Of a stretch of 12,779 bases of DNA, positions 1,003 to 12,374 are shown piece after piece. This DNA comes from an uncultured Candidatus Saccharibacteria bacterium (GTDB lineage Bacteria > Patescibacteriota > Dojkabacteria > JAHIVN01), in the NCBI GenBank assembly GCA_964572065.1, contig CAZNER010000036.1, forward strand, positions 7,289-20,067, given 5' to 3'. The notes under the pieces are model-generated. The model did no database searches. It worked only from the letters and a program-made list of their open reading frames with translations, and was not told where the DNA came from. The translations under genes and the position numbers were made by a program. How positions within the stretch are numbered: position 1 is the first letter of the stretch; each line of letters begins with the position of its first letter.

Positions 1003-1033
1003 AAAGAGAAAGGGTTTATAGCCCTTTTCTCTT
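1003..1033. other. imperfect inverted repeat (stem-loop) spanning the stop codon of the flotillin-like gene
   Basis: aagagaaaggg-tttata-gcccttttctctt forms a stem of about 11 bp with one bulge. On the plus strand it is followed by a T-rich run. On the minus strand, where the genes actually lie, it is followed by UAAGGUG, which is not U-rich. Terminator function is therefore doubtful. Confidence 0.3.
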
Positions 1034-2560
1034 ATTTTTATTTACTTTTCTCTGCATCTGTTCTATCTTATCTTTAGTTGTCTCTAGCTCTTTCATTTTT
1101 TCTATTTGAGTTTTCTCTTTCTTGGGTTGTTCCTTTGGTTTAGATTTGCTCTTTGGTTTTCTAGTTGGTTTGGGTTGCTCTTCTTGCATCTCCTTACCAA
1201 TTGATAACCCCTCAACAAATCCTAAATCGTTAGGCTTTGCTTTATTATGTAAGATAGCTTGTGCTGTATCAGGTGAACTCACATTAATACCCTCTATAAG
1301 TTTTCCCATATCAAAACCATCTCTAGCTCCATTACCTGCAAACACTCTCATGTCAGCATATTGTAGAGCCTCTGCTAAAGCTTTACCAACTTCAAGATCT
1401 TTGTTGACTAACAATTCAGCTATTAATGCTCTAATTGCATTATCATCAAATTTATTAAGAGCTTCTTGTAAGTCTTCTTTACCCTCTGCTTCTGCTTGGA
1501 GCTTCTTCAAGATAATCTCAGCTTCTGCTGTACCTGTTTCTCTTATGGGTGCAGCTTTTCCTATAGCTTTTTCTTGCTCTCTGATTTTATCTCCTTCTCC
1601 TTCTAGACGTTTTTGTTCTTTATTAATTGCTTCAACATCCTTTCTCTGTTCAGCATTTATTTTAGCTACAACTTTTTGTTGCTCCGCTAAAACTCTAGCT
1701 TTTTCTTTCTCAATCTCTTGGTTTTTAACTTTATCTACTTTAGTTACCTCAAGTTGTTCTGCTAGAGCAGCTTTTTCTTTCTCTGCTATGAGCTTATCTT
1801 TCTGTTGTTGTCTCTTAGCTACTTCTTCATCTCTTTCTATCTCTCGTTTTTGAGCAGATTCATCAGCTATTGCTTCCTTTAATCGAGCCATTTTCTTTTG
1901 CTCTGCATTTTTCTGTCTAGCTTCAGAGTTAATCTGTTCTTCTATAATTGAAGAAATATCAGATATAACATGAGATTCTTCTGTGTCCTTAAATTCAACC
2001 AATTCAATATCCTTGAGAACTAATCCCCAGTTGGTTATTGCTGACTGTAGAGGTTCTATGATTTCTTTAATGATTCCTTCTCGATCATTAATAATCTCTC
2101 TTACAGTTTTCTTGGTTGTTGAATCCCTAGTTGTTGCCTGAACAACTTTAGATACTTGCTCTGATAGTTCTTTCATGTCACCATTAAATCTTCGTGCAGC
2201 AACTACAGGATCTGTAATAGCTACATAAGCCATGATGTCACATAAGAACCTAGCTCTGTCTATATCAAATGCTTTGAAATCTGTAACATCTATTGGTAAG
2301 ATTTCCAGAGGCATTGGATGTACATGCATACCTATTCCAGGTATAAATCCAGGAATTTTAAAGTATGCGGCTTTTCCACCTGAAGAGTATTCTCCTTCAC
2401 CACTATGTTTTTTGTCTGAGCAAAATACTCTTGTCTTTCTACTTTGTACCACTACGTCAGCATAATTTGCTGGTGCAATCTTATACATACTAAATAAGAT
2501 TAATAAAAAACCAGCTATTATGGCAACAATTAATAGTGGCCATATTAGTATTTCTATCAT
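1016..2560 (-). CDS. flotillin-like SPFH/band-7 domain membrane protein (YqiK/FloT-like), 514 aa
   Basis: An N-terminal TM helix (IWPLLIVAIIAGFLLILFSMY) is followed by an SPFH-like core. After that comes a long region of E/A/K/Q heptad coiled coil (AEQKK..AKRQQQKDKLIAEKEKAALAEQ..) typical of flotillins. Next is a glycine-rich MRVFAGNGARDGFDMGKL segment, and the protein ends in a lysine-rich basic tail. Confidence 0.85.
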   Translation of the reverse strand: MIEILIWPLLIVAIIAGFLLILFSMYKIAPANYADVVVQSRKTRVFCSDKKHSGEGEYSSGGKAAYFKIPGFIPGIGMHVHPMPLEILPIDVTDFKAFDIDRARFLCDIMAYVAITDPVVAARRFNGDMKELSEQVSKVVQATTRDSTTKKTVREIINDREGIIKEIIEPLQSAITNWGLVLKDIELVEFKDTEESHVISDISSIIEEQINSEARQKNAEQKKMARLKEAIADESAQKREIERDEEVAKRQQQKDKLIAEKEKAALAEQLEVTKVDKVKNQEIEKEKARVLAEQQKVVAKINAEQRKDVEAINKEQKRLEGEGDKIREQEKAIGKAAPIRETGTAEAEIILKKLQAEAEGKEDLQEALNKFDDNAIRALIAELLVNKDLEVGKALAEALQYADMRVFAGNGARDGFDMGKLIEGINVSSPDTAQAILHNKAKPNDLGFVEGLSIGKEMQEEQPKPTRKPKSKSKPKEQPKKEKTQIEKMKELETTKDKIEQMQRKVNKNKRKGL

Positions 2561-2585
2561 TTTTTCTTTCTCCTATATTTTTTTT

Positions 2586-2813
2586 TTATTCTTTTTCTCT
2601 TGCACTTAATCTTATAGAACCATCATATATTTTGTTGGTTACCATTTGATTAAGTATTTTGGTTATAAGTCCATCTTCAGTTTTGACATATATATTCTTA
2701 CCATTGTCGATGTCCTTATATGCTTGCTCCATGTCTTCAATCGACTTGAAGACTATTTTATCTCCAGCTGTCTTCTCACCGAGAGACAACTCTTCTACAC
2801 TATATACTTCCAT
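2586..2813 (-). CDS. hypothetical protein (75 aa)
   Basis: Complete ORF immediately 5' of the flotillin-like gene. AGGAGAAA lies upstream of the flotillin start. No motifs. Confidence 0.5.
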   Translation of the reverse strand: MEVYSVEELSLGEKTAGDKIVFKSIEDMEQAYKDIDNGKNIYVKTEDGLITKILNQMVTNKIYDGSIRLSAREKE

Positions 2814-3765: not shown

Positions 3766-4058
3766 AGCATATCCAACATAAGCTCTTCTAGTTCCTCTTC
3801 AGGAACTTTTTCATCTAACATAAAAGCTTCAGGTCTAAACTCTTCTCCAAATACCATAAAATCTATATCCTTTTCTCCAGGAAATTTTTTACTCAAACCA
3901 ACATTTAAATATTTAACGGTTGCTGTTCTATATACACCATCTTCATATATAGTTGGTCTATTATAATTGTAATTTAATATGATATAATATAAAGCCTCAT
4001 GTTTATGATTTCTATCATATCTTCTTCTAATCTCACCAACTTTAGGCCAGTCTCTCAT
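3762..4058 (-). CDS. hypothetical protein (98 aa), array-related C-terminus
   Basis: Ends in EEELEELMLDML, which is related to the EEAMVELL ends of the array genes. ATGA overlaps are present at both ends. Confidence 0.6.
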   Translation of the reverse strand: MRDWPKVGEIRRRYDRNHKHEALYYIILNYNYNRPTIYEDGVYRTATVKYLNVGLSKKFPGEKDIDFMVFGEEFRPEAFMLDEKVPEEELEELMLDML

Positions 4059-4273
4059 AATAACTCTACCATAGCTTCTTCCTTTGTTATTTTCTCAAGA
4101 TTCCAATGTGTTTGTTTAAGAGCAGAATAATGTGAACCTTCATAACCATTTTCAGAAAATAATATTTCTATTTCATAATCTTCTCCTTTCTGTTCCACTA
4201 CTTTAACAATTTCAACTACATTTTTATACTCTTTACTAGTAGCTTTTATATAATCTCCAACTTGAAACTTCAT
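4055..4273 (-). CDS. small paralog-family protein A (72 aa)
   Basis: Starts MKFQVGDY and ends KEEAMVELL. ATGA overlaps are present at both ends. Confidence 0.65.
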   Translation of the reverse strand: MKFQVGDYIKATSKEYKNVVEIVKVVEQKGEDYEIEILFSENGYEGSHYSALKQTHWNLEKITKEEAMVELL

Positions 4274-4524
4274 AATAATTCCACCATAGCTTCATCTAAT
4301 GATATTATTTCTGATTCCTTTTCCATTGGACTATTAACCTGAAAATTATCTTCAATACATTCTTTATTATGAGTATAATTTAATTTCCTATATAAATAAA
4401 AGGGTTTCTTAGAAAGTTGCTTTAATTGGAAAGGACTTCTATATATGTCTTTTGGGCTAACTACATCAAATATATATCCAACTAGTTCGTGACATCTAAA
4501 GTAATCTCCCTTTTTAAATTTCAT
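4270..4524 (-). CDS. small paralog-family protein B (84 aa)
   Basis: Starts MKFKKGDY and ends DEAMVELL. Its SD (GGTGGA) lies inside the upstream C-terminal codons. Confidence 0.65.
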   Translation of the reverse strand: MKFKKGDYFRCHELVGYIFDVVSPKDIYRSPFQLKQLSKKPFYLYRKLNYTHNKECIEDNFQVNSPMEKESEIISLDEAMVELL

Positions 4525-4664
4525 AACTCCTCAACCATTACTTCATCATCATCCATTTCCTCTAAATACATACCCTTATTCTCATAATATTTAATTCTAT
4601 AATATTTACTGTTAACAATTACTATATCATTTTCTCTACCAATAATAGTCCCATTTCTATACAT
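4521..4664 (-). CDS. truncated paralog-family member C' (47 aa), found by hand
   Basis: Translation is MYRNGTIIGRENDIVIVNSKYYRIKYYENKGMYLEEMDDDEVMVEEL*. The start overlaps the upstream stop as TAATG, and the stop overlaps the downstream start as ATGA. It keeps the C-terminal motif but lacks the N-terminal GDY module. Confidence 0.4.
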   Translation of the reverse strand: MYRNGTIIGRENDIVIVNSKYYRIKYYENKGMYLEEMDDDEVMVEEL

Positions 4665-4885
4665 TATAATAATTCCACCATTAATTCATCCTTAGTTAAT
4701 TTTTCAACTTGTTCTTCCCAACAATGTATTTGGATATATTTATTATATATTGGAGCTAATATTAATTGATCAGGTAATACATCTTTACATATAATTTCAC
4801 ATATAGTTCCCTTTTTAACTGTTACATTATCTCTTATATTAGCTACTGAATATTTTAATCTTCTATATTTATTTATATCCTTCAT
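4664..4885 (-). CDS. small paralog-family protein D (73 aa)
   Basis: Ends KDELMVELL. The N-terminus is divergent (MKDINKYRR). Confidence 0.6.
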   Translation of the reverse strand: MKDINKYRRLKYSVANIRDNVTVKKGTICEIICKDVLPDQLILAPIYNKYIQIHCWEEQVEKLTKDELMVELL

Positions 4886-5124
4886 AGTAATCCTATCATA
4901 ACTTCATCCTTAGTAACTAATTTAACTTTCTCCTTGCTTGGTTCATAGAAACAAAAATCTTGTCTATAAACATTAGATATATTAAGGTGCTTACATATAT
5001 ACATCTTATAACCATATCTTTTATAAATAATATTTTCAACTATAACAAATAACCTTTTACCTATTTCACTTTGAAATCCATCCATATCTATAATCTCTAA
5101 ATAATCTCCAACTTTATACTTCAA
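4882..5124 (-). CDS. small paralog-family protein E (80 aa), apparent TTG start
   Basis: Starts with TTG-AAG-TAT (read as MKYKVGDY) and ends KDEVMIGLL. The TTG overlaps the upstream TGA as TTGA, a degenerate form of the ATGA junction. Confidence 0.55.
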   Translation of the reverse strand: MKYKVGDYLEIIDMDGFQSEIGKRLFVIVENIIYKRYGYKMYICKHLNISNVYRQDFCFYEPSKEKVKLVTKDEVMIGLL

Positions 5125-5348
5125 AGTAACTCCACCATAGCCTCCTCTTTACTTAGTTTCTTTAAACCTCTATTATCATATATCTCTACAGATCCTGATG
5201 CTTCACCAGTTATATATAATACAGTATAAGGATATTCATGGTTATGAACTATCTCCTTTATTATACCTATATTACCTATTTGATTTTTTAGATATACATA
5301 ATCGTAATGTTTAACTATTTTTACGTAATCTCCCTTTTTAAATTTCAT
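5121..5348 (-). CDS. small paralog-family protein F (75 aa)
   Basis: Starts MKFKKGDYVKIVK and ends KEEAMVELL. Confidence 0.65.
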   Translation of the reverse strand: MKFKKGDYVKIVKHYDYVYLKNQIGNIGIIKEIVHNHEYPYTVLYITGEASGSVEIYDNRGLKKLSKEEAMVELL

Positions 5349-5506
5349 AATAAATATACCATCAATTCATCTTCGTTTAATGGACCTATTATATCTAGTT
5401 CTAATACAGCATCAGGACTAACTACTATTTTGTAACCATGTATTTTATCATCGTATTTCTTAACATACATACCTATAGCATCCATATAAGGTAAATCTTG
5501 ATACAT
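5345..5506 (-). CDS. truncated paralog-family member G' (53 aa), found by hand
   Basis: Translation is MYQDLPYMDAIGMYVKKYDDKIHGYKIVVSPDAVLELDIIGPLNEDELMVYLL*. Its stop overlaps the ATG of the 5121..5348 gene as ATGA. It is the first gene of the array, after a 79-bp gap. Confidence 0.4.
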   Translation of the reverse strand: MYQDLPYMDAIGMYVKKYDDKIHGYKIVVSPDAVLELDIIGPLNEDELMVYLL

Positions 5507-7535: not shown

Positions 7536-8081
7536 TTAAATCACTTTATATTCTCCATATTTATTTAATCTACAATACTTACCCTTAATAGCTCTATATT
7601 GTTTCAATACTGAATTAGTAGATACAGGTGTAAATTGATTAACATCTACTCCAACGTTAATGATAGGAATGCTTGGATTACTCTTTAGAATCTTAAACTT
7701 CCATTTCTCATGAATATGACCACAGATTACAAAGTCACAGATAGGTAACACTTCTGGTGGATGATGTTGTACAAATACATCCTTACCACCAAAGAACATC
7801 ATAGCTTTATCAATATAGGTTTTAATACCATTATTCATATCATGGTTTCCTCTAATATGAACAATGTCTCCATTTAACATATTCTCAAATCTTTTACCAT
7901 TAAGTTGTCCTTTAAAAGCAAAGTCACCTACATGATATACTAAATCATCTGGAGATACTACACTATTCCATCTCTTAACAAGTTCCCTATTCATATGGTT
8001 ATTGTCTTTGAATGGTCTACTAGTATACTTAATAATATTATCATGATCAAAGTGACAATCAGCTGTAAAAAATATTTTCAT
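7536..8081 (-). CDS. calcineurin-like metallophosphoesterase (181 aa)
   Basis: Carries the metallophosphoesterase signature motifs in order: DCHFDHD, GDFAFKG, GNHD, HHPP and CGHIHE. Confidence 0.85.
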   Translation of the reverse strand: MKIFFTADCHFDHDNIIKYTSRPFKDNNHMNRELVKRWNSVVSPDDLVYHVGDFAFKGQLNGKRFENMLNGDIVHIRGNHDMNNGIKTYIDKAMMFFGGKDVFVQHHPPEVLPICDFVICGHIHEKWKFKILKSNPSIPIINVGVDVNQFTPVSTNSVLKQYRAIKGKYCRLNKYGEYKVI

Positions 8082-9607: not shown

Positions 9608-9849
9608 TATATCACATCTCCAAAGCAATACTCAAAGAAACTAACTTTATGATTTATTTTCATACCTTCATAGAAATCACTATAATGTTTTGGTTGCTCT
9701 TCCATTAACTTTGCTGGATTATCTTTATATTTATTATAAAATTCAACAGCTGATTTGACATCGTTTTTAGTAAAATAAATGTGATTATCAATTGGGTCAT
9801 CTTCATCTACTCTTTCATCTATAATTTTCTCTCTTAAAGGTTCACACAT
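9607..9849 (-). CDS. hypothetical protein (80 aa)
   Basis: Complete ORF that overlaps the 3' end of the methyltransferase gene by 16 nt. Confidence 0.55.
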   Translation of the reverse strand: MCEPLREKIIDERVDEDDPIDNHIYFTKNDVKSAVEFYNKYKDNPAKLMEEQPKHYSDFYEGMKINHKVSFFEYCFGDVI

Positions 9850-11339
9850 AATTTCTCTCCTATAGCTTTTATTACATTCACCGTAACAGCATTACCTAAT
9901 TGTCGATATCTTTGTGTATCAGATATTAATATATCAGGTAGATTTCCTATTACAGTTTTCTTTATACCATAATCTTTCATAATTTTCTTACAATGTTCAC
10001 AACAATAATAATGTCCAATAAGATGCAGGGTTCCACCTTTAGCATTCTTACCAGCTTTCTTACAAGCTGAGACTTCTGCATGTTCTACTTGTCCACATAT
10101 CTCTTTACAGAGTTCGTAGCCTGTACCCGTCTTAAAACCAATCCTCGGGCATTTCTGTTGTGGTGTTAGACATTCATTGTAACCAAACCAATACTTACCA
10201 TTATTCTCTATGATAGCAACAACTGTTTGTTTAACACATCTTCCCTTAAAATTCATAATTGGGGTTCCATACTTAGTCCAATCATCTGGGAATCCTTGAA
10301 GTCTTTCACATTCAACGGGAGTTAATCTTCTTAGTTTATCATATTGATTACAGATATCCCAAGAGTGTCTATCTACGCTACTTCTTCCACCACTCCTTAC
10401 TGTCTTGGATATTATAACTCCATCTCTATCTTGGTTATTTAAAGTAAAGGTTGCTTCATCAGGCTCTTTAACCCATCTACCTTCTTGTCTTGGTTTTCTA
10501 TCGGGTGTCTTTACTGATCTAGCTACACCTTGATTCATACCAACATCAAGACAATAAGCTTCGTCTTCCTTACCTATAGTTCCATAACCACCAGGATAGG
10601 ATTTACCCTCTTCTCTAGCTTTAACCATACAAGGTCTATCTAATCCTCTCTTTTGTGTATTCATAACTATAGGTACATTGTGTCCACCTGTTCCCATATT
10701 TTGGGTTAAGGTTGGACTACCTTCATGTTCTCTTATTTCATTTGCTCTATGGGCTTTGTATGTTTTTCCTTTAGATACTTCTTGAATCTTTCTTGCATCT
10801 TCTCTGAAAGGTAATACTTGCTGTCTACTTCCTCCTCTAAGATATCCGATAATGAAGACACGTTCTCGGTTCTGGGGTACTCCGAAAAATTTGCTGTTAA
10901 GTACCATCCATTCAACTCTATACCCCAATTCATCCAACGTTTGAAGGATGACTTTGAAAGTTTCCCCTTGTTTGTGATTGAGTAACCCCTTGACGTTTTC
11001 AAGGAATACAATCTTAGGTTTTTTAGCTTTAATAATTCTTGCAATTTCAAAAAAGAGAGTTCCTCGGGTATCTTTAAAACCTCTCCGGTGTCCAGCAATT
11101 GAGAATGCTTGACAAGGAAATCCTCCACAGAGCATATCAAAGTCTGGTATTTCTTCTGGTTTGATTTTTGTGATATCTGTTGGTTCATAACATTCACCAT
11201 AATTTTTATTATATACTGATACTGCATACTTATCTATGTCACAGTACCATACAAATTTATATTTATCCGATGCTTCTTGTAGTCCCTTACGGAATCCACC
11301 TATACCACCAAATAAATCTGCTACTCTTATCTCATCCAT
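9834..11339 (-). CDS. DNA (cytosine-5)-methyltransferase with an inserted dCMP/cytidine-deaminase-like zinc domain (501 aa)
   Basis: The C5-MTase motifs are all present: I FGGIGG (residues 10-15), IV GFPCQAFS (catalytic C76), VI ENV (113-115), VIII QNRERVF (156-162), IX RRLTPVECERLQGFPDDW (337-354) and X QLGNAVTVNVIKAIG (480-494). Between motifs IX and X, at residues 366-465 (nt 9945-10244), sits VVAIIENNGKYWFGYNEC..C..C..CGQVEHAEVSAC..GGTLHLIGHYYCCEHCKKIMKDYGIKKTVIG. This matches the ComEB/dCMP-deaminase pattern GYNG ... HAE ... PCxxC ... GIKKVVY. Confidence 0.9.
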   Translation of the reverse strand: MDEIRVADLFGGIGGFRKGLQEASDKYKFVWYCDIDKYAVSVYNKNYGECYEPTDITKIKPEEIPDFDMLCGGFPCQAFSIAGHRRGFKDTRGTLFFEIARIIKAKKPKIVFLENVKGLLNHKQGETFKVILQTLDELGYRVEWMVLNSKFFGVPQNRERVFIIGYLRGGSRQQVLPFREDARKIQEVSKGKTYKAHRANEIREHEGSPTLTQNMGTGGHNVPIVMNTQKRGLDRPCMVKAREEGKSYPGGYGTIGKEDEAYCLDVGMNQGVARSVKTPDRKPRQEGRWVKEPDEATFTLNNQDRDGVIISKTVRSGGRSSVDRHSWDICNQYDKLRRLTPVECERLQGFPDDWTKYGTPIMNFKGRCVKQTVVAIIENNGKYWFGYNECLTPQQKCPRIGFKTGTGYELCKEICGQVEHAEVSACKKAGKNAKGGTLHLIGHYYCCEHCKKIMKDYGIKKTVIGNLPDILISDTQRYRQLGNAVTVNVIKAIGEKLCVNL

Positions 11340-11603: not shown

Positions 11604-12374
11604 TTATACTCCTAATACTTTATAAACATACTCTTGTAGTTTATGAGTCTTATTAAATTTCTTATTCATTATCTCTATATGTTCATCTAAGAAATCTTCT
11701 ATGTAACTCTCAAATTCATGTATGTGGGATATTATATCCTTTTCTCCACCTTGTTCCTTTATCTCTATAACTTCCCAGAGTTTATCCTTAACATCTTTAG
11801 GTAAGGATACTTTCTCTACGGTTTCTTTAAATCTTATAGGTGGTACTTCAAGATATTGTTCTACGTATTTAGCATTAACTAATCCTCTCATGGCATAAAG
11901 ATACTTCTTATGTGTCATTAGCTTTTCTGATTTGAGGTAATTAAGATAGTTATTCTTACACATACTCTTATAATGATAATATAATGATATTGGATTAAAG
12001 TGTTTATTCATTATCTTTTTTAAATGCTCCTTACTCCACCCATCTTCAGTATATATTATGTCACAGTTAAGCCACTCTATTACTGAAGGATTACTACTGT
12101 TCAGGAGTCTTATGAATTTGTATAAATCAAATCCAACAAAATCATATATTCCATCTGTCTTATCAATAACATCTCTTGGAGGATGAATTTTCAGATAATC
12201 TTTTTTATCTCTTACATACACAAACCTAATGTCATAGTCGGAGTCCTTACTCTCAATCCTCCAAGCTCTGCTACCTGATTCTACAGCAAATAATATTCTT
12301 ATATTATACTTTTGCTCCAAATCACCTAACGTATTTATAATATCATAGTCTATATCTATACTCCTTTCTGACAT
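11604..12374 (-). CDS. Pol-beta-superfamily nucleotidyltransferase (COG3541-like), 256 aa
   Basis: The N-terminal AVESGSRAWRIESKDSDYDIRFVY is the hG[GS]x9-13 D-x-D nucleotidyltransferase signature. It is characteristic of the predicted-NTase family that is often linked to RNA-repair and tRNA-related loci. Confidence 0.75.
   Translation of the reverse strand: MSERSIDIDYDIINTLGDLEQKYNIRILFAVESGSRAWRIESKDSDYDIRFVYVRDKKDYLKIHPPRDVIDKTDGIYDFVGFDLYKFIRLLNSSNPSVIEWLNCDIIYTEDGWSKEHLKKIMNKHFNPISLYYHYKSMCKNNYLNYLKSEKLMTHKKYLYAMRGLVNAKYVEQYLEVPPIRFKETVEKVSLPKDVKDKLWEVIEIKEQGGEKDIISHIHEFESYIEDFLDEHIEIMNKKFNKTHKLQEYVYKVLGV

Follow-up and report, generated by a model that had tools for sequence, protein, structure and literature searches.

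A flotillin-like SPFH gene and its conserved non-NfeD partner gene form a two-gene module in a large low-GC virus-like element, probably of an archaeal host

Two adjacent genes at positions 1016-2813 of a 12.8-kb stretch of DNA (the window, meaning the whole stretch that was analysed) were studied. They encode a flotillin-like SPFH/Band-7 membrane protein and a small soluble protein of an unannotated new family. Both genes are real, and the assignment of the module and of its families is close to certain. We favour, with moderate confidence, the reading that the pair is an operon of a virus-like element, which would co-express it with early and replication genes to build membrane microdomains of its own. 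Band-7/SPFH proteins have already been annotated in many phages and giant viruses, and phage genome papers mention viral SPFH proteins briefly (PMC13239085). The literature searched contained no work on the function of a virus-encoded flotillin or SPFH protein; the subject of the Perkons phage paper is integration into the host floA gene. What is new here is a dedicated partner family that is not NfeD and whose predicted fold has no solved relative, a module of partner and flotillin-like protein found in Thermoplasmatota and Planctomycetota as well as in large virus-like elements of low GC, and the lengthened tail of the virus-like copies.

The domain content of the SPFH protein was determined by profile search and by an AlphaFold2 (AF2) model. 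Band_7 (PF01145) matched residues 65-222 with 44.8 bits (gathering score 23.6, E = 1.9e-11). The AF2 model, built with 101 homologs as input, had a mean predicted local distance difference test score (pLDDT) of 79, and pLDDT exceeded 95 over the SPFH core. Beyond the core, the model showed a continuous helix at residues 198-369, followed by helices at 373-401 and 412-441, with a short low-confidence segment (402-411) around a conserved RVFAG motif. The helical region is rich in E, K and A and contains 15 EA/AE dipeptides. The C-terminal region 373-446 consists of a cap helix, the RVFAG segment, the helices at 412-441 and a nearly invariant P-N-D-L-G motif; the nearly invariant columns of the family alignment are F407, G409, P443, D445, L446 and G447. 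A transmembrane (TM) anchor was indicated by a Kyte-Doolittle 19-residue maximum of 3.03 at residues 4-22, which coincides with an AF2 helix at residues 2-25. Because this helix has no preceding basic n-region and is followed by K/R residues, the positive-inside rule predicts an N-out topology with the body in the cytoplasm. An earlier sequence-only reading of this DNA had proposed an N-terminal TM anchor, an SPFH core and a coiled coil of about 200 residues in the 514-aa protein; the anchor and the above-threshold Band_7 match bear it out, and the helices 198-369 and 373-401 account for the coiled coil. A tape-measure or scaffold protein with a TM segment and a coiled coil but no SPFH domain was rejected, since the SPFH domain is confidently present.

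A total of 157 homologs of the SPFH protein were found. At least nine metagenome contigs encode exactly the same protein, so that a chance open reading frame (ORF) is ruled out. Antisense ORFs within 1016-2560 (e.g. 1122-1853, + strand) were considered and rejected as genes, being by-products of the repetitive E/K/A-rich coding strand; these long antisense ORFs look "conserved" between loci, which is an artefact. GC is locally higher at the SPFH gene (35% versus 27%). Recent horizontal acquisition was rejected, because GC at third codon positions (GC3) is like that of the neighbours (0.216; other genes of the window, 0.196 +/- 0.045) and it is the first and second codon positions that hold the excess, as a result of the Ala/Glu-rich composition. 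The equal GC3 indicates that the gene is a long-term resident and not a recent capture. No matches to the SPFH protein were found in PHROGs or PADLOC. One related locus (L021 5989-7193, +; an 86-kb contig of 35% GC binned as "Gammaproteobacteria") has the module with an SPFH gene that is divided between two frames, either through a frameshift or through faulty assembly; its binning is open to doubt, because GC and gene content resemble those of the virus-like loci.

The type of SPFH protein was then assessed. Foldseek comparison of the AF2 model with the PDB gave flotillin-1/2 cage subunits as best matches (9bq2 and 9l3g; E ~7e-12, ~440 columns, 18-21% identity), and below them stomatin, HflK/C, prohibitin, erlin and major vault protein (MVP). 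The Foldseek probability was 1.00 for the SPFH domains of stomatin, flotillin, HflK/C, prohibitin and erlin. A PDB sequence search with the protein alone gave no match, whereas the family profile matched stomatin SPFH domains (E = 1.7e-8), QmcA (E = 6e-5) and flotillin-2 across the SPFH domain and helices (profile positions 115-409, E = 3e-4). The NCBIfam FloT equivalog NF058507 matched only partially (residues 258-395, the helical part; 41.1 bits versus a cutoff of 700), and Pfam Flot (PF15975) was not detected at E <= 0.1; among the 120 homologs listed, only P0106 carries PF15975. The protein is flotillin-like by architecture and lies outside the curated FloT family by sequence. In SPFH cages the wall helix is 44-189 residues long, and flotillin belongs to the longest class (PMC11260169); the 172-residue wall helix found here is of flotillin size.

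Compared with the eukaryotic flotillin-1/flotillin-2 cage, the protein has the same succession of membrane anchor, SPFH domain, very long wall helix (172 residues here, up to 189 there), cap helix, short beta segment, C-terminal helices and unstructured C-terminus. However, the flotillin anchor is a hairpin with acylation while the window protein has a true N-terminal TM helix, and the flotillins form a heteromeric pair while the window holds a single SPFH gene. The obligate small partner gene and a much longer charged tail also set the window protein apart. A second, more divergent Band_7 gene (672 aa, with a LAGLIDADG intein) was seen directly upstream of the partner-SPFH pair on a 46.6-kb virus-like contig (L031 4357-6375, +); these two tandem Band_7 proteins may form a heteromeric cage, like flotillin-1/2 or HflK/C. 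FloT/YuaG and YqiK (SPFH2) share with the window the arrangement of a small-protein gene directly upstream of an N-terminally TM-anchored flotillin-like gene (PMC2636767), but the partner found here is soluble, alpha/beta and unrelated to YuaF/YqiJ (NfeD2). Escherichia coli QmcA-YbbJ (8z5g) and HflK/C-FtsH (7vhq, 7wi3) are likewise prokaryotic SPFH cages with an operon partner or client; they differ in their short wall helices and in a partner that is a membrane NfeD protein or a protease, and HflK/C faces the periplasm. Viral Band-7/SPFH proteins with no assigned function are found in Rhizobium phage Pasto, Streptomyces phage StarPlatinum, Vibrio phages AG74 and pVa5, Tupanvirus, Pandoravirus and mimivirus. 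The proteins of Vibrio, Xanthomonas and Erwinia phages reach ~27% identity over ~82% of the window protein. The SPFH proteins of cultured phages and giant viruses have no basic tail, and the majority are shorter and resemble stomatin, prohibitin or HflK.

The partner gene was examined in the same way. The family has 37 homologs, in which 18 positions are invariant, and Pfam gave no domain for it. The protein is 48% identical (E = 2e-25) to an ORF abutting the SPFH gene on a 1.42-Mb archaeal (Thermoplasmatota-type) chromosome from a metagenome-assembled genome (MAG). Linkage was tested by running the family profile against six-frame ORFs of all fetched loci (numbered L001 onwards), with close-family SPFH proteins defined as those of at least 40% identity; one locus (L006) was too short to tell. 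In 27 of 27 loci with a close-family SPFH gene and upstream DNA, the partner lay directly upstream on the same strand. These loci belong to Thermoplasmatota, Thermoplasmata and Euryarchaeota MAGs, three Planctomycetota MAGs and low-GC virus-like contigs. In the window 25 nt separate the partner stop codon from the SPFH start, and in at least five loci the two overlap by 4 nt in an ATGA-type junction, indicating translational coupling. More distant relatives from IMG/VR (35-38% identity) carry an ORF of 67-88 aa at the partner position, with weak, collinear profile matches (hhalign E = 7e-4, 2e-3 and 0.13), and no partner gene was found beside the ~27%-identical SPFH homologs of cultured phages of Vibrio and Xanthomonas. 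When 1.84 billion cluster representatives were searched exhaustively with the profile, only 43 matches were obtained, among which the genuine ones are all standalone proteins of 60-133 aa. Domain fusions were rejected as a functional clue, since the long matches were immunoglobulin (Ig), ankyrin and peptidoglycan (PG)-binding repeat proteins with spurious multi-stretch alignments. A CARF-like match was weak and appeared in 10 of the 37 members.

NfeD occupies the corresponding position in stomatin (SPFH1) and bacterial flotillin (SPFH2) operons, and has three TM stretches and an all-beta OB domain (PMC2636767). An NfeD identity of the partner was rejected: it had no NfeD profile match, zero TM segments and a predicted non-OB fold, and no NfeD was seen in any inspected neighbourhood of SPFH homologs. 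The sequence-only reading had correctly placed the 75-aa ORF at an NfeD-like position without NfeD features, but the ORF is no mere place-holder. Judged by its sequence and linkage, the partner is a dedicated, obligate and previously undescribed companion of this SPFH clade, cellular and viral, at the site where NfeD otherwise sits. Because linkage is obligate and translation coupled, it would most likely bind the cage stoichiometrically, and it is rather probable that it acts as a direct cofactor.

The C-terminal tail distinguishes the virus-like copies from the cellular ones. In the window protein, the 68 residues 447-514 include 21 K/R, 11 D/E and 5 P. Residues 447-483 are K/P-rich and disordered (pLDDT < 50), while 485-513 form a predicted helix (pLDDT ~80); the linker (447-484) and the basic terminal helix (485-514) each carry a net charge of +5. 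Fifteen loci were inspected for tail length, and the split into long and short tails was complete among them. The eight cellular loci (41-65% GC, with HypB/HypF, EF-G, MTHFR and similar genes as cellular markers) have 18-42 residues past PNDLG with a net charge of about 0 (-3 to +2), whereas the seven virus-like loci (30-35% GC, no cellular markers) have 62-99 residues and, in the query clade, a net charge of +4 to +10. Two endings recur in the virus-like tails, a K/R-rich stretch followed by either R-M or L-P (...KRKKRM, ...RKKLP), and the long-tailed proteins group in a neighbour-joining tree of the SPFH-protein core. The long tail is specific to virus-like copies, and the earlier remark that a lysine-rich tail is not typical of cellular YqiK/FloT thereby holds for the cellular members of this family. 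The term "histone-H1-like", also used there, is a fair description of composition in the query clade and does not speak for homology; the tail evolves fast and is acidic in sister clades. A DLETTK helix in the tail is common to the three closest proteins only. The closest cellular counterparts, SPFH or "flotillin" proteins of Thermoplasmatota MAGs (e.g. UCE80448.1 on CP070736.1), share 50-58% identity over >80% of the length and have the same partner upstream. However, they are cellular, with 53-65% GC, a roughly neutral tail of 26-42 residues ending in ...KKERGK and no LSM-like gene downstream, unlike the virus-like loci.

The nature of the element was assessed from its gene content. The window (~30% GC, every credible gene on the - strand) sits on a 135,213-bp contig (ENA ERZ27256770 k141_1720618), with the SPFH gene near 45 kb. 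About 20 kb on each side of the SPFH gene, together with positions 1-39 kb of a related IMG/VR contig, were read (~60 kb). The flanks contain dozens of 50-130-aa ORFs without database matches, the phage-type families GP88, YopX, HNH and PHROG-547 phosphoesterase, an RlaP nucleotidyltransferase and a C5 methylase with an embedded deaminase-like domain. PHROG families 547, 116 and 14344 were found in the phage-like block. A replication set is also present, comprising PolB, a PolB-exo/RNase H-like protein, a PriS/PriL-like primase, a RadA-like ATPase and an ERCC4/XPF nuclease. The window is ~91% coding with frequent ATGA-type overlaps, and Shine-Dalgarno (SD)-like motifs precede 17 of its 31 genes against a background of 21%; gene organisation is prokaryotic in type. 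A 77%-identical SPFH copy lies on a 116-kb IMG/VR viral contig (115,760 bp, IMGVR_UViG_3300028920_001945), and IMG/VR contigs of 57-183 kb hold three further, more distant copies. The label "virus" is well supported, though short of proof, by gene content and by the IMG/VR classification of the relative.

A clue to the host domain was provided by a full-length, 73-aa homolog of ribosomal protein eS17 with a K/R-rich C-terminus on the same contig (PF00833, E = 2.1e-10, 41 bits versus a cutoff of 22.8). To our knowledge eS17 is restricted to archaea and eukaryotes, and here it is a virus-borne ribosomal protein, or one borne by a mobile genetic element. A word-indexed search with this eS17 for a host clue returned only the query itself. 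Relatives of the element carry inteins, the module has its closest cellular homologs in Thermoplasmatota, and the best deposited PolB match is from a haloarchaeal tailed virus, at only 25% identity. Together with eS17, ERCC4 and the PriS-like primase, these features favour an archaeal host. The element is thus probably a large low-GC virus-like element of an archaeon, and a eukaryotic-virus origin is unlikely. The phage-like gene block of the sequence-only reading was sustained by the GP88, HNH, YopX and PHROG families and by the IMG/VR relative, but the carrier is probably a virus or element of an archaeon and not a bacteriophage. In related elements of 183-271 kb that carry the module, a giant ORF of >3000 aa without Pfam matches and an IS605 OrfB/TnpB-like gene were also observed (L009 13760-21578, +; L011 18057-19280, +).

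A mechanism can be proposed by analogy with solved SPFH assemblies, namely flotillin, HflK/C, stomatin and QmcA-YbbJ; the flotillin, HflK/C and stomatin cages are built of 44, 24 and 16 subunits, respectively (PMC11260169 and PDB entries). The N-terminal helix would insert into the host membrane with the body in the cytoplasm, and the protein would oligomerise into a closed dome enclosing a patch of membrane, with the cap helix, RVFAG segment and C-terminal helices shutting its narrow end. That a cytoplasmic cage is formed is likely. The 75-aa protein would serve as a stoichiometric cofactor or regulator of this cage, in the place of NfeD. The most speculative step concerns the viral tails, which may leave the narrow, membrane-distal end in tens of copies as a polycationic brush and helix. 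In flotillin, unstructured C-termini project from the narrow end and appear to contact a second membrane (PMC11260169). The viral brush could tether an anionic target, either nucleic acid or the anionic lipids of a second membrane, and we regard this tether as a tentative possibility. The pair is located among the early and replication genes of the element, as the proposed co-expression would have it. A bolder version would have a virus-made flotillin-type compartment in an archaeal cell, with tails that dock viral nucleic acid or a second membrane to give a membrane-tethered replication or assembly organelle, and with the 75-aa protein as a new class of SPFH-cage cofactor that replaces NfeD in an archaeal, planctomycete and viral lineage; we hold this version to be improbable.

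Several observations weigh against the proposal that the virus uses the pair to make its own microdomains. The AF2 model is a monomer with a predicted template modelling score (pTM) of 0.49, and cage assembly, localisation and partner interaction are predictions; the role of the partner is read from gene linkage alone. The tails of sister-clade proteins P0013, P0056 and P0060 are net-acidic and basic only at the extreme C-terminus, and at 67-77% core identity the tail already diverges fast, retaining only its composition and basic end. The poor conservation of the tail sequence weakens the case for a specific binding site. In the ~20 kb read on each side of the SPFH gene and in ~39 kb of the IMG/VR relative, genes for a capsid, portal or terminase were not seen; the search for virion genes turned up only replication, nucleotide-metabolism and RNA-repair genes. 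In addition, the named cellular homologs have 53-66% GC, versus 30% in the element.

Bacterial FloA/FloT and YdjI-PspA keep the membrane fluid, energised and intact under envelope stress, and the pair might in the same manner supplement or replace the host flotillin system during long infection by a large virus, with a tail that has no specific cargo. We consider such membrane maintenance a possible but rather doubtful explanation. The module is also present in cellular Thermoplasmatota and Planctomycetota genomes, so that a host-like function would be most economical; rapid tail drift suits a non-specific role, Band-7 genes are common in large phages and giant viruses, and SPFH proteins are tied to membrane stress responses (PMC8581546). 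However, maintenance leaves the 62-99-residue extension with recurrent endings, confined to virus-like copies, unexplained, and the viral proteins are only ~55% identical to any cellular copy and long resident, which suggests specialisation over dosage. Doubt may also be directed at the element itself. The failure to see virion genes in the ~60 kb read, the genes all on one strand and the related contigs of up to 183-271 kb with IS605 OrfB and giant ORFs would fit a large plasmid, a Borg-like extrachromosomal element or a mis-binned cellular fragment, with the pair as ordinary cellular cargo. This is unlikely given the phage-typical GP88, YopX, HNH and PHROG 547, 116 and 14344 families, the dozens of tiny matchless ORFs packed with 4-nt overlaps, the 77% relative and three more distant ones in IMG/VR, the lack of housekeeping genes other than eS17, and the difference in GC from the cellular loci noted above.

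Two further functions were weighed for the pair. Superinfection exclusion, an assembly scaffold and membrane remodelling, which the sequence-only reading had put forward, are all speculative. A cage that sequesters or blocks a membrane receptor, channel or entry portal against a second virus would serve superinfection exclusion or inter-virus competition. Its predicted membrane location and its position alongside early genes are compatible with this, and SPFH cages can enclose membrane proteins, as in HflK/C-FtsH (7vhq, 7wi3, 9cz2) and stomatin-aquaporin (9zd2). But the SPFH protein has no PADLOC match, which also leaves the earlier idea of a defence island unsupported, the CARF-like match of the partner is weak, the literature searched yielded no exclusion system with SPFH proteins, and the same module stands in ordinary housekeeping neighbourhoods of cells, making exclusion very unlikely. 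Regulation of a membrane protease, in the style of HflK/C-FtsH or stomatin-STOPP/NfeD, is the biochemical role best documented for prokaryotic SPFH cages (PMC2636767; PDB 7wi3, 9cz2), and could control degradation of viral or host membrane proteins. No protease gene adjoins the module at any examined locus, the partner has neither a protease domain nor an NfeD fold, and the architecture is of flotillin type and not of HflK/C or stomatin type; we judge this function very unlikely as well. The coordinates of the features of the pair, and of two further genes on the contig, are collected in Table 1.

Table 1. Positions of the partner-SPFH pair, the parts of the SPFH protein and two further genes of the element (window coordinates except for eS17)
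Feature	Position	Strand	Details
Partner gene, 75-aa soluble protein, unannotated new family	2586..2813	-	beta-beta-alpha-beta-beta-alpha-beta predicted
SD-like AGGAG motif	2570..2574	-	9 nt before SPFH start codon, in the 25-nt partner-SPFH spacer; read from sequence
SPFH gene, flotillin-like SPFH/Band-7 membrane protein	1016..2560	-	514 aa, ATG start, stop codon included
N-terminal TM helix, residues 2-25	2486..2557	-	Kyte-Doolittle maximum and AF2 helix
SPFH (Band 7) alpha/beta core, residues 26-192	1985..2485	-	PF01145, pLDDT, family profile
Single 172-residue "wall" helix, residues 198-369, E/K/A-rich	1454..1969	-	AF2, composition
Putative cage-closing C-terminal region, residues 373-446	1223..1444	-	AF2, conserved columns; cage part assigned by analogy to the flotillin narrow end
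Tail of virus-like copies, residues 447-514	1019..1222	-	linker, then terminal helix
LSM/Sm-like (DUF6897-like) small protein, 108 aa	526..852	-	weak Pfam DUF6897, LSM; phrog_17251
eS17 ORF	L001 9880-10101 (= L053 10001-10222)	+	same 135-kb contig, ~8 kb downstream of SPFH gene, past the window's left edge

In divergent virus-like loci, only one other gene is found repeatedly just after the module. The LSM-like protein of the window shares 41% identity (E = 8e-12) with the ORF that directly follows the SPFH gene in L011, and an LSM-like gene also follows the SPFH gene in L031 and L007; it is absent at cellular loci. This gene may be an accessory of the module. A third conserved gene was sought at the cellular loci; the neighbours that recur there are HypB and HypF, and their recurrence is only synteny among related MAGs. 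In a single cellular case (L015 6157-6867, +; "Armatimonadota"), an LmeA-like phospholipid-binding protein (PF11209) is encoded ~550 nt past the SPFH gene.

Other genes of the window and its surroundings were also recorded. Six tandem small paralogous ORFs (window 4055-5506, -; 53-84 aa) often start with MKFK.GDY, all end in ...E(A/L/V)M(V/I).LL and have no Pfam match. Their conserved 3' end (…ATGGTGGAGTTATT) overlaps the start of the next gene, where it serves as an SD-like site, and many more such ORFs of 70-100 aa are found upstream, in L054. Among small ORFs in L054 (2174-3493, +), ~8 kb upstream of the window's right edge, lies a 439-aa DUF2201/DUF2201_N protein (VWA-like putative metallopeptidase). 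The C5 cytosine DNA methyltransferase (501 aa, window 9834-11339, -; PF00145, 293 bits) contains a cytidine/dCMP deaminase zinc-binding domain at residues 370-465 (PF00383, 25.8 bits), an unusual combination. Moreover, RNA-repair and tRNA-maintenance genes recur near the SPFH module of different elements (window 11604-12374 and 7536-8081; L009 4185-4901; L037 13256-15427; L036 4820-6172; L031 10859-11644). This set consists of RlaP nucleotidyltransferase, metallophosphoesterases, RNA ligase, a 723-aa Pnkp-like kinase-phosphatase-ligase, CCA-adding enzyme and Thg1, and its recurrence suggests counter-defence against tRNA-cleaving nucleases.

The SPFH cages of flotillin, stomatin, HflK/C, prohibitin and erlin have been solved only recently, and what they contain and recruit is largely open. 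The locus described here is a compact, strictly two-component SPFH system whose partner is neither NfeD nor a protease, and its natural cellular and viral variants differ mainly in the tail expected at the narrow end of the cage. Practical impact will be modest pending a host or an expression system. The module makes two questions testable, namely the effect of a non-NfeD cofactor on an SPFH cage and the purpose of a decorated narrow end, and it adds to the evidence for membrane-organising genes in large viruses of uncultivated archaea.

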